Made by a program: the position numbers. This document shows, piece after piece, positions 38,301 through 41,300 of a DNA stretch of 64,000 bases; positions within the stretch are counted from its first letter, which is position 1, and the number at the start of each line of letters is the position of its first letter. Where the stretch lies: assembly GCF_056712565.1 (NCBI RefSeq), contig NZ_CM160072.1; one strand, 5' to 3'.

Positions 38301-41300
38301 GTCATTCAAAATCGGCATACCTTCCTTTAATGTATTTATTTTCCCAATAAATATATGAGATTTACCTCATAATTACTTCCTAAAGTGTAATATTTTATTT
38401 TTTAATATATACGCCTACAATTTCCTGGAGTAAATAAATAACAATTAACAAGCATAATATTGCCATTGATAAAATAGCATGCCATAAAAGGACTTTTCAG
38501 GGATGAGTAATATTGTTTATCTGACAGTAACGGGAGAACAACAAGGAAGCATCTCCGCAGGTTGTGGGACTACTGAATCTATAGGTAATCGCTGGCAGAG
38601 CGGTCATGAGGATGAAATATTTACATTCTCACTCTTAAATAGTATTACTAATACGGGGCTTGGTTCACAGTTCCATGGTATAACATTTTGTAAATTAATT
38701 GATAAAAGCACTCCATTATTTATTAATTCCATTAACAATAATGAACAATTATTTATGGAATTTGACTTCTATCGAATAAATAGATTTGGTAGATGGGAAA
38801 AGTATTATTATATACAACTAAGAGGCGCTTTTTTATCGGCTATTCATCACCAGATCTTTGAAAACCAACTGGATACAGAAACAATAACTGTTAGTTATGA
38901 ATTTATCCTCTGCCAACATCTTATCACTAACACCGAGTTCAGCTATTTGGCACTCCCTGAAAATTATAACCGCTTGTTTTTACCAAATTCAAAAAACAAA
39001 ACAAATAATGGTTTAAAAACGTTAAACAGCGAAGCTGTTGGCAGGCTACTTGCTGCTGGTGGCGTATACAATGGGAACATTGAAGGATTCAGAGATACTG
39101 CGGAAAAACTGGGTGGAGATGCAATCAAAGGCTATGATCAAATACTAAATGAAAAAACAGCGGGCATAGCGATAGCAACAGCATCTATTCTTTTAACAAA
39201 GCGTTCTAATGTTGATACATATACAGAAATAAATAGTTACTTAGGCAAACTTAGAGGCCAACAAAAACTTCTTGATAGTATAGACATAATAGAAATAATA
39301 TAAATTAAGAGACCTTCAAAAGACTTAGCTAACTTACGAAAGGAGTTTAATAAAAATGTAAGAAAAAATTTTCTTATCAAACTTGCAAAAACCTCCGAAG
39401 CATCTGGAAGATTCAACGCCGAAGACCTTTTAAGAATGAGAAAGGGCAATGTTCCTCTAAATTATAATGTACACCATAAACTATCTCTAGATGATGGTGG
39501 TACTAATGATTTGGAAAATTTAGTATTAATCGAAAACGAACCATATCATAAGGTTTTTACTAACATGCAATCACGAATAGCTAAGGGAATATTAGTGGGT
39601 GAAAGCAAAATCACTCCCTGGGCCATTCCATCTGGCTCAATTTATCCTCCCATGAAAAATATTATGGAACCCACAAAATGATGACTAAAACCCAAATAAA
39701 TAAATTAAAAAAAATGATGAATGATTTAGACTATCCATTTGAAGCACCGCTCAAGGAATCATTTATTGAAAGTATAATCCAAATAAAATTTAATTCTAAC
39801 TCAACTAATTGCCTGGAGAAGTTATGTAATGAAGTTAGTATTCTCTTTAATAATCAACCTGATTATCTTACTTTTTTAAGAGCAATGGATGGATTCGAAG
39901 TTAATGGATTACGATTATTTAGCCTCTCGATTCCAGAACCTTCAGTTAAAAACCTTTTTGCCGTAAATGAATTTTATAGAGATAATGATGATTTCATAAA
40001 TCCTGACTTACAAGAACGGTTAGTGATCGGGAATGATAGCATTTCAATATTTACTTATGACATTAAAAGTAACTTTTTTGAAATTAGAGATAATATTGGC
40101 ACAGAAAATATATTCAGTTCGTTTAGTGATTTCTCTTCATTCTTAAACGAAATCATGGACAGTTGTTCATAATAATAAAAAGGTAACCAAAATCATTGTA
40201 AACCATGCCATCTTTTTAGAGTTTACCAGCAGTAAATTTCTTGATCGAAATTTATCAATACAAGCTATAGAAAAACTTACAACGGAACTACACTCCTTAA
40301 GTGAGATGGACCGAAGACATGTAGTCGCTATTTAAACTGAAATAGCTAATGGCGATGATGATCTTAGTGACATGTTGATTTGGTTAGAATTTTACCCGAA
40401 TCATAAGATTCTGATATCTTAAATGAGCAAATCCGGTTCGACGTTCTGGAAAATAAATCACAAAATATTAGCAGATACTTATTTTGTGACTATACCTTAT
40501 CCGATGAACTCTTTTCAAAACCAGCATTTAATAATATCTTTGACGAAGATGAACGCGTCTTTGCTCAATGTATAACGCAGGAATAATAATATAACGCTAA
40601 ACAATAATATTTATTATAATTATGATTACTTATCACGACGCATTCGCGAAAGCGAACAATTACCTTGATGATGCAAATCTCCCGGTCGTCATTACTCTAC
40701 ATGGACGCTTTAGCCAGGGCTGGTATTTCTGTTTCGAAGCACGAGAATTTCTCGAAACTGGAGATGAGGCCGCGCGCTTAGCTGGTAACGCACCTTTTAT
40801 TGTTGATAAAGGCAGTGGTGAAATTCATTCTCTGGGAACGGCAAAGCCACTGGAAGAATATCTACAGGATTATGAAATAAAAAAGGCTACCTTCGGCTTG
40901 CCCTGACAATACGGCCCTCTTCCCACTAAGAGGGCCGCTAACCTTAATACCCCGCCGTTAAATCATCCACCGAGCGCGGGTCGGATGCACCGTACAGCTC
41001 ACCGTCCGGCCCAATCATAATGCTTTGTGTACTGCCCATCGCCTCTTTCAGCGCCACTTTCTGACCTTTTGCTTCCAGCAGCTTGATCGTATCCGGGCTA
41101 AACCCTTTTTCGACACGCAGCTCGTCCGGCAACCACTGATGGTGGAAACGCGGCGCATTGGTCGCTTCGGCGACGTTCATTCCATAATCGATGCTATTCA
41201 CCACCATTTGCAGCACAGTGGTGATAATCCGGCTACCGCCTGGGCTTCCGGTGACCAGCCAGGTTTTACCATCCTTGACCACAATGGTTGGTGACATCGA

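Follow-up and report, generated by a model that had tools for sequence, protein, structure and literature searches.

The yhhZ locus of the Escherichia coli type-strain lineage: an Hcp-ET1-type effector pseudogene followed by an intact immunity-type gene

When the gene of a secreted toxin is interrupted by a single in-frame stop codon, are its two parts the remains of a dead gene, the pieces of a working device, or the outcome of a sequencing accident? The yhhZ locus of E. coli raises this question in the window studied here, i.e. the whole stretch of 64,000 nucleotides that was analysed (contig NZ_CM160072.1 of NCBI RefSeq assembly GCF_056712565.1). Between yhhY and ggt lies an islet with 34% G+C, against 49% for the window, and within it a plus-strand frame, 38503-39681, is made of 393 codons ending with TGA; on translation, its sole internal stop is a TAA at 39301-39303 (codon 267). 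The mechanical list of open reading frames (ORFs) cuts this frame into 38503-39303 (266 aa) and 39436-39681 (81 aa), and no in-frame ATG, GTG or TTG is present within the 44 codons that separate them. A sequence-only reading had described precisely this layout, an Hcp ORF of 266 codons and an HNH ORF parted by TAA alone, with neither start nor stop among the 44 intervening codons, and both translation and ORF list bear it out. Joined together, the two parts make 392 aa, just as the intact orthologues of strains PAR, FORC_028 and 55989 do. The sequence-only reading gave the same length for YhhZ of K-12, correctly so (NP_417899, 392 aa, orthologous, at the same locus and with the same 392-codon length). 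The gene occurs at a median of one place per genome. Our answer to the question is that yhhZ is, very probably, an orphan 'evolved Hcp' T6SS effector gene of the Hcp-ET1 kind, inactivated by a C-to-A change of Tyr267 to TAA. The features that matter are as follows, with the evidence that defines them.

38268..40943, no strand: AT-rich islet between yhhY and ggt, with toxin and immunity genes (composition profile)
38503..39303, plus strand: 5' part of the yhhZ (tssD / Hcp-ET1-type) pseudogene (ORF list, translation, Pfam, TIGR03344, RefSeq pseudogene)
39301..39303, plus strand: premature TAA, codon 267 of yhhZ (comparison with PAR, FORC_028 and 55989)
39304..39681, plus strand: untranslated 3' remainder of yhhZ, the rest of the HNH toxin domain (alignment, profile, AF2)
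39436..39681, plus strand: 81-codon mechanical ORF starting at YhhZ Met312, probably not a gene (ORF list)
39678..40172, plus strand: yrhA, intact, 164 aa, presumed cognate immunity gene of ETI1 type (NCBIfam YrhA, RefSeq WP_000988509.1)
40267..40422, plus strand: yrhD remnant, pseudogene (RefSeq 'internal stop'; translation against the intact FORC_028 copy)
40622..40906, plus strand: yrhB, intact, 94 aa, Imm35 family (Pfam Imm35 6.5e-22; RefSeq 'YrhB family protein')

The first point to settle is whether the stop codon exists at all. The window shares about 99.98% identity with ATCC 11775, the type strain of E. coli, and its yhhZ is 100% identical to that of NZ_CP033092.2; in the RefSeq record of ATCC 11775 the gene already figures as a tssD pseudogene, with the remark 'internal stop'. 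Alignment to intact alleles, which the sequence-only reading had called for, identifies the sense codon as TAC (Tyr) in PAR, FORC_028 and 55989, so that a single C-to-A transversion at 39303 makes the difference, and just three nucleotides distinguish the window's copy from that of PAR over the whole gene. An error of sequencing or assembly, hiding a gene that is truly intact, might be suspected, as the window has some differences of its own from the type-strain assembly in RefSeq. One of them, a 1-bp deletion in ggt, is present in no complete genome, which means that this assembly, or the stock it came from, has changes unseen in any other. We nevertheless give next to no credence to an error at codon 267: the 81-mer spanning the TAA is found, exact, in 127 of 5426 complete genomes sequenced independently, UTI89, S88, APEC O1 and IHE3034 among them; at least 1000 public contigs encode the exact 266-aa product, and at least 1000 the exact 81-aa one; and RefSeq has recorded the internal stop. 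These genomes and contigs, all with the same allele, rule out sequencing error as the source of the TAA. With TAC in place of TAA, the haplotype's 81-mer is carried by 315 other genomes, including Nissle 1917 and LF82.

The nonsense mutation is thus real, and it has been passed down through an entire sub-lineage of B2, which comprises the type strain, UTI89, S88, APEC O1 and IHE3034. The latter four we take to be members of ST95. No paper mentioning both ATCC 11775 and ST95 was found in a literature search; a link between ATCC 11775 and S88 is made in one article (PMC4334874). The lesion is therefore nothing new as such: it is a pseudogene flagged by RefSeq, spread throughout a clinical lineage, of a characterised effector type, Hcp-ET1. 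All that makes a nonsense pseudogene is found here, with a sense codon in the orthologues, essential residues lost and no start codon to rescue them, and we found no evidence contradicting this reading.

What did the stop remove? Homologues that share residues 1-230 of YhhZ and differ in their C-termini delimit its domains: an Hcp domain over residues 1-160 or so, a linker up to about residue 243, and then the toxin module, of which the 5' part retains the first 23 residues. The Hcp domain attributed to the 266-codon ORF is readily recognised by Pfam T6SS_HCP (residues 18-139, 1.9e-11) and by NCBIfam TIGR03344 (residues 1-147, 3.5e-35, 121 bits for a cutoff of 58.9). As to the claim that one nonsense codon uncouples Hcp from its DNase, the single TAA in place of TAC upholds it, whereas the position does not quite match the picture, because the stop lies some 23 residues into the C-terminal toxin module and not at a domain boundary. 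Two features of the Hcp-ET family are present in the window, the N-terminal Hcp/TssD domain and, immediately downstream, a cognate immunity gene, represented by yrhA. The third, a toxin fused to Hcp in one polypeptide, is seen in the intact orthologues and is missing here, the TAA at codon 267 preceding all catalytic residues. With its frame broken at that point, the window's copy is a pseudogene of the Hcp-ET family rather than a functional member of it.

The catalytic residues were located by comparison with distant relatives. A word-indexed search with the last 142 aa yielded fragments from E. coli for the most part and, since it lacked diversity, an exhaustive search of representative homologues was used instead; it shows that the toxin module moves from carrier to carrier. 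Among 34 toxin-domain homologues, 36-56% identical, H324, H325, N335, N339 and H349 are invariant (HH...N...N...H), and the column of codon 267 is Tyr in at least 90%. All five invariant residues are encoded 3' of the TAA (H324/H325 at 39472-39477, N335 at 39505-39507, N339 at 39517-39519, H349 at 39547-39549), so that this part of the window contains, in order, the catalytic His, the two Asn and the metal-ligand His of a ββα-metal motif. Pfam HNH matches the single YhhZ sequence weakly (0.013 and 0.0036), and recognises all 34 family members at E<=0.1 and half of them (17/34) at E<=1e-3. Searched against the PDB, the profile of the module matches Cas8f-HNH at 8e-5 and colicin E7 and pyocin DNases at about 2e-3 over some 70 residues. 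The AF2 model of the toxin domain has a pLDDT of 94.3 and its best 38 Foldseek matches in the PDB are all pyocin or colicin DNases or the Rhs2-CT HNH toxin, with probabilities up to 1.0 but modest E values (1.8e-3) and TM scores (0.35-0.44). An HNH motif and fold downstream of the stop, as the sequence-only reading supposed, is thus corroborated by conservation, profiles and model alike. The C-terminus of YhhZ is a putative nuclease of the colicin-DNase-like HNH (His-Me finger) type, as judged from sequence and predicted structure, and YhhZ is placed in the literature in His-Me finger group 32 (PMC5714182).

The likeness to the DNases of colicins E7 and E9 and of pyocins S2 and AP41 is one of fold, with the ββα-metal (HNH) architecture predicted for YhhZ aligning over 77-87 columns (Foldseek probability 1.0, rmsd 2.5-3 Å), and also of gene order, the neutralising protein being encoded just downstream of the toxin. 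It goes no further: identity is only about 16-28%, with the modest TM scores already given, the carrier is Hcp with the T6SS where colicins rely on receptor-mediated import, and the immunity protein is the SUKH-like YrhA, in contrast with the four-helix Im protein of colicins.

Could the 3' part still be used? One may imagine a functional split, in which toxin would be made by readthrough or reinitiation, or in which a separate Hcp would coexist with a free HNH nuclease restrained by YrhA. Both parts of yhhZ are otherwise undamaged, the catalytic motif is whole in the 3' part, yrhA has been kept, and certain public pipelines list the 3' fragment as a gene. UAA, however, is recognised by both release factors and terminates more efficiently than the other stops of E. 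coli, which argues against readthrough. As for reinitiation, neither a Shine-Dalgarno sequence before the 81-aa ORF nor a canonical start accompanied by one after the TAA was found: upstream of the ATG at 39436 the anti-SD duplex reaches only -1.4 kcal/mol, no better than the regional background of -2.2 +/- 2.5. The 81-aa product would also be without a secretion carrier and without residues 267-311, the first 45 of the DNase domain, including the long helix 272-295. Finally, an undamaged 3' part is just what is expected of a recent inactivation, the allele lying three nucleotides away from intact ones. A split that works is therefore highly improbable, and the 'HNH-motif ORF' of the earlier reading, 39436-39681, is a mechanical ORF and probably not a gene. 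Public records that do call it name its product 'hypothetical protein'.

Independent translation of the 3' part was also considered as a candidate in its own right and rejected for want of support, with neither a start nor a Shine-Dalgarno sequence to sustain it and with promoter-like and terminator-like sites in the islet as numerous as expected from shuffled sequence.

Downstream, the immunity-type gene is intact, as had been anticipated. yrhA overlaps the yhhZ stop with its start (ATGA), codes for 164 aa, is a RefSeq CDS (WP_000988509.1) and matches the NCBIfam YrhA family at 3.3e-36; its product is 96% identical to YrhA of 55989. That it behaves as a cognate immunity gene is suggested by the neighbourhoods of distant toxin copies, where YrhA-like genes follow the toxin whether the carrier is Hcp, DUF8093 or phage MuF. 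The proteins encoded directly downstream of these distant homologues are YrhA-like in profile comparison (hhalign probability 99.3%, E 5e-20), and one toxin-adjacent protein with Pfam SMI1_KNR4 also aligns to YrhA (probability 84%, E 8e-6). SUKH / SMI1-KNR4 proteins reportedly serve as immunity proteins of polymorphic toxin systems, an account that is said to go back to Zhang, Iyer and Aravind in 2011. Besides this toxin neighbour, with its Pfam SMI1_KNR4/SUKH_6 match aligning to the YrhA profile, some YrhA homologues are named SMI1/KNR4 in UniRef. Unlike SUKH proteins, YrhA itself matches no Pfam domain, and its AF2 model, of low confidence (pLDDT 66), has no meaningful structural match, nor has YrhA one by sequence in the PDB, the SMI1/KNR4 structure 3d5p coming out of Foldseek at only E 0.8. 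YrhA is presumed to be the cognate immunity protein and to be related to SMI1/KNR4-SUKH proteins.

The closest characterised system is the Hcp-ET1/ETI1 pair of E. coli STEC004, O104:H4 C227-11 and 55989 (Ma et al., 2017, as relayed by PMC6730261, PMC6099711 and 10.1101/2024.03.05.583533). According to the reviews (PMC6730261; PMC6099711), T6SS2 delivers Hcp-ET1, a DNase of the HNH type, and ETI1 counteracts it. Strain 55989, one of the reported carriers, has an intact orthologous pair likewise placed between yhhY and ggt, with 95% identity for the toxin and 96% for YrhA to the conceptual B2 proteins. The tentative assignment of Hcp-ET1 as the YhhZ orthologue rests on these secondary sources and on the synteny of 55989. 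The difference is that in the Hcp-ET1 strains the genes are intact, whereas in the window's copy the TAA at codon 267 means that the toxin cannot be made.

K-12 makes a second comparison, as the mirror image of the window's lineage: there the toxin is intact and yrhA is lost, here the toxin is lost while yrhA and two T6SS clusters are kept. Its yrhA is interrupted by IS1. IS1 at this locus is the subject of a discussion in one paper (PMC12428005), and K-12 is among the strains listed as being without T6SS genes in a review (one of PMC6730261 and PMC6099711). A strain may therefore have an intact yhhZ with no T6SS, and intactness is no proof of use as an effector.

The T6SS core genes, which the sequence-only reading had proposed to look for, appear to be there: the genome of the type strain has two complete-looking clusters, at metV and aspV, without pseudogene flags. 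This bears on a further possibility, that the truncation is adaptive, either because the stub still serves as an Hcp without toxin (as tube subunit, chaperone or decoy) or because selection favoured losing the DNase with immunity retained. A successful lineage has this allele fixed, with the 5' ORF, yrhA and the two clusters all still whole, and polymorphic toxin systems are known to leave orphan immunity genes behind. If this were true, an extraintestinal lineage of K1/ST95 type would have been selected, in its niche, for disarmament with immunity, or for the stub as an Hcp subunit or adaptor. Fixation in a clonal lineage, however, needs no selection, as hitch-hiking is enough, and the divergence within such a lineage is too small for selection on yrhA or on the 5' part to be measured. 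The locus decays independently elsewhere, by frameshifts in SCU-482 and by an IS1 truncation in C10, and the neighbouring yrhD is dead too, with ATA replacing the ATG of the FORC_028 copy and an internal TAA. The stub, moreover, ends within a beta-sheet of the toxin domain in the AF2 model, which speaks against a designed boundary. We see only a slim chance for an adaptive truncation. Effector inactivation with retained immunity, as first proposed, holds insofar as the toxin gene is broken and yrhA is intact; selection for that retention could at most be inferred.

The preferred reading, simple inactivation, may be pictured as follows. A C-to-A change turned Tyr267 from TAC to TAA and removed every catalytic residue of the nuclease, with no start signal to rescue the 3' part. 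The cell would be left with, at most, a 266-aa Hcp-linker stub devoid of toxin, and would lose delivery of the DNase, while YrhA could still protect it against E. coli endowed with the intact effector. The loss would then reflect the ordinary decay of genes in a toxin/immunity islet that is eroding, rather than regulation or recoding of the gene.

For practical purposes, neither the type strain nor the UTI89/S88/APEC O1 group is able to produce this DNase of Hcp-ET1 type, yet both keep the immunity gene and two T6SS clusters, so that yhhZ status is useful when strains are chosen for work on interbacterial competition; TAC to TAA at codon 267 also makes a simple lineage marker. Beyond such bookkeeping the pseudogene matters little, and it makes no open question newly testable. 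Taken with K-12, it illustrates that orphan toxin/immunity islets erode differently according to lineage. At the far end of the same islet, yrhB codes for a predicted polymorphic-toxin immunity protein that has no cognate toxin next to it.

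The yhhZ gene, named tssD in RefSeq, lies in an AT-rich islet between yhhY and ggt (G+C 34%, against 49% for the window), with the following features.

Features of the islet (window coordinates)
38503-39681, plus strand: yhhZ, encoding an Hcp domain, a linker and an HNH toxin module
38503-39303: 266-aa ORF, in the same frame as the 81-aa ORF (mechanical ORF list)
39436-39681: 81-aa ORF, in the same frame as the 266-aa ORF (mechanical ORF list)
39678-40172: yrhA, intact, its start overlapping the yhhZ stop (ATGA)
40267-40422: yrhD remnant, a pseudogene with ATA for ATG and an internal TAA
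40622-40906: yrhB, predicted immunity gene (Pfam Imm35, immunity protein 35, 6.5e-22)

Translation of 38503-39681 gives one frame of 392 codons and a terminal stop, the sole break being a TAA at 39301-39303, codon 267. The two same-frame ORFs split by a single TAA are exactly as the sequence-only reading had described them, and there is no ATG, GTG or TTG in the 44 codons that separate them. In the intact alleles of PAR (3 nt different from yhhZ of the window), FORC_028 (33 nt different) and 55989, codon 267 is TAC (Tyr), the sense codon that alignment had been proposed to reveal; the lesion is therefore one C-to-A transversion.

Of 5426 complete E. coli genomes, 3805 have yhhZ. The 1179 bases of the window allele are 100% identical to the type-strain record NZ_CP033092.2 (E. 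coli DSM 30083 = ATCC 11775), where RefSeq labels the gene 'tssD, type VI secretion system tube protein TssD', a pseudogene with an 'internal stop', neighboured by yhhX, yhhY, yrhA, the yrhD remnant, yrhB and ggt. Exact matches to an 81-mer with the TAA at its centre occur in 127 of the 5426 genomes, including UTI89, NU14, S88, IHE3034, UM146, APEC O1, APEC O18, PMV-1 and EV36, and exact matches to its TAC version in 315, including Nissle 1917, ATCC 25922, LF82 and clone D i14. These two counts together approach the 446 genomes having the whole gene at 99% identity or more; thus, one B2 haplotype falls into two groups, one with TAC and one with TAA. UTI89, S88, APEC O1 and IHE3034 belong to ST95. 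DSM 30083T is of phylotype B2, with S88 as its nearest neighbour (type-strain genome paper, PMC4334874). The exact 266-aa product occurs in at least 1000 public contigs, as does the exact 81-aa ORF. The same allele in 127 complete genomes and at least 1000 contigs rules out the TAA as an error: it is real, inherited and lineage-wide. The K-12/K1 laboratory hybrid EV36 and its derivatives KMS2001 and KMS2005 have the TAA allele, not the intact K-12 allele, which implies that the K1-donor chromosome segment reaches as far as the yhhZ locus.

The N-terminus of YhhZ is an Hcp/TssD domain (Pfam T6SS_HCP, 1.9e-11; TIGR03344, 3.5e-35). Searched exhaustively, 1.84 billion representative proteins yielded 894 relatives; some have residues 1-230 (Hcp and linker) in common with YhhZ and unrelated C-termini, many others only residues ~244-383, located C-terminally in proteins of 170-1261 aa. 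Such swapping of C-termini and carriers is how modular polymorphic toxins are typically built, and it places the toxin module at roughly residues 244-385. Across 34 aligned modules with 36-56% identity to YhhZ, H324, H325, N335, N339 and H349 are invariant, an HNH/ββα-metal signature, and Tyr267 is kept in at least 90%. Pfam HNH matches the single YhhZ sequence weakly (0.013 and 0.0036) and, across the modules, 17 of 34 at E<=1e-3 and all 34 at E<=0.1. The family profile matches Cas8f-HNH (8e-5), and, along some 70 residues, the DNase domains of colicin E7, pyocin AP41 and pyocin S2 (~2e-3). The top 38 PDB matches of an AlphaFold2 model of residues 236-392 (pLDDT 94.3) are all DNase domains of pyocins or colicins or the HNH toxin Rhs2-CT, with probabilities up to 1.0, TM 0.35-0.44, a best E of 1.8e-3 and an rmsd of 2.5-3 Å across 77-87 columns. 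Both fold and motif of the HNH domain proposed downstream of the stop were therefore found. YhhZ has been placed in His-Me finger group 32 (PMC5714182), and termed an 'evolved Hcp' with a degenerate HNH domain (PMC2907695).

By alignment and model, codon 267 falls ~23 residues inside the toxin module, where the third β-strand of the module ends. That one stop cuts the Hcp part off from the DNase stands as first proposed; its position is corrected, from the Hcp/toxin boundary to within the module. The 266-aa product would retain the Hcp domain and linker, with no catalytic residue, and a product of the 81-aa ORF would, according to the model, be without residues 267-311 of the fold. Anti-SD duplex energies show no Shine-Dalgarno-like pairing after the stop: +0.2 kcal/mol before the ATT that follows it and -1.4 before the ATG at 39436, against a regional background of -2.2 ± 2.5 and -5.3 before the yhhZ start. 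Promoter-like sites are no commoner in the islet than in shuffled sequence, and among stop codons UAA is the one that E. coli reads most efficiently. We infer that no nuclease is made from this allele.

The immunity-type gene downstream, yrhA, is intact as had been claimed. YrhA matches only the NCBIfam YrhA family (3.3e-36), and nothing in Pfam. Its AlphaFold2 model is mediocre (pLDDT 66), with no meaningful match to known structures by Foldseek or PDB sequence search. As these searches were uninformative, a neighbourhood test was used, examining the gene that directly follows each of three distant toxin homologues, all with different carriers. Compared with YrhA by hhalign, this gene gives a probability of 77% in L006, an Hcp fusion from a food metagenome (gene partial), 84% (E 8e-6) in L007, a phage MuF fusion, and 99.3% (E 5e-20) in L008, a DUF8093 fusion; the downstream genes are therefore related to YrhA in all three loci. 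Such co-inheritance with the toxin module, whatever the carrier, is characteristic of cognate immunity proteins, the role predicted for YrhA. The L007 neighbour has Pfam SMI1_KNR4/SUKH_6 matches, and the test links YrhA, putatively, to the SUKH superfamily. In L007 (3001-7251) the module is the C-terminus of a 1261-aa MuF-domain protein, encoded close to holin and amidase genes on a phage-like contig; the toxin/immunity pair is therefore mobile between carriers of T6SS and of phage type.

Hcp-ET1 of STEC004, C227-11 and 55989 is reported to be an orphan Hcp-HNH DNase that T6SS2 delivers and ETI1, encoded downstream, neutralises (PMC6730261; PMC6099711; preprint 10.1101/2024.03.05.583533). At the same locus as in the window, 55989 has an intact 392-aa YhhZ orthologue and yrhA, their proteins 95% and 96% identical, respectively, to those conceptually translated from the B2 haplotype; this orthologue is very probably Hcp-ET1. 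The 64-kb window holds no T6SS genes. Following the suggestion to look for core genes across the genome, two clusters, neither with pseudogene flags, were found in the type-strain chromosome.

T6SS clusters of the type strain (RefSeq annotation, NZ_CP033092.2)
1028535-1058279: cluster 1, adjoining the metV tRNAs
3741650-3767267: cluster 2, adjoining aspV

The metV cluster has tssA, B, C, E, F, G, H, J, K and L, an ImcF-related TssM, Hcp, a VgrG-like DUF2345 protein, PAAR proteins and a Tle4-like esterase/lipase with a Tli4-family immunity gene. The aspV cluster, probably 'T6SS2' sensu Ma et al. from its gene content, has tssA, B, C, E, F, G, H, J, K and M, DotU, tagH, vasI, two hcp genes, vgrG and a PAAR-like gene. 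Both appear complete as annotated, and, being unflagged, they indicate that effector loss is not part of a general T6SS loss. Effector inactivation with retained immunity is supported by the TAC-to-TAA change and the intact yrhA, with the stop repositioned; the pseudogene being annotated and the effector type characterised, the finding was already known.

The TAA lineage is nearly clonal at the locus, and selection in it for loss of the toxin with immunity kept, or for the Hcp-linker stub as such, is unlikely. The allele is most probably one case of ordinary erosion of an orphan toxin/immunity islet. yrhD is intact in FORC_028 and 55989; PAR, with yhhZ intact, has the same yrhD lesion as the window, which is therefore not limited to TAA genomes. 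SCU-482 has frameshifts in tssD and in yrhA, C10 has lost the whole of yrhA and most of tssD to a truncation associated with IS1, and K-12 has an IS1 in yrhA: these lineages damaged the locus independently. yrhB, for which 'YrhB family protein' is often the sole annotation, is of the immunity type and an orphan, without an adjacent cognate toxin.

Over its whole 64 kb the window shows 7 mismatches to NZ_CP033092.2, and 8 gapped bases in 4 gap openings. In ggt (minus strand), a 1-bp deletion at ~41302 splits gamma-glutamyltransferase into ORFs of 119 aa (40944-41303) and 501 aa (41198-42703); none of the 5426 complete genomes has an exact match to an 81-mer across it, so the deletion is private to this assembly or stock, or is an assembly error. 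Conversely, glpG (ORF 8047-8877, minus strand) is an intact 276-aa ORF in the window, lacking at ~8112-8114 the 7 extra bases of the ATCC 11775 record, where it is annotated as frameshifted. Window and record therefore represent different stocks or close relatives, each with a private lesion. At 38146 the window has C for A, changing GAT (Asp) to GCT (Ala) in the N-acetyltransferase YhhY; six further single-base differences are at 2309, 11352, 11709, 16162, 53650 and 56969. In the type strain, rtcR and one fimbrial subunit gene are likewise annotated as frameshifted in RefSeq, at window ~5690-7290 and ~15140-15710 (approximate positions, converted from record coordinates), and the rtcR counterpart in the window is a 519-aa ORF at 5693-7252.
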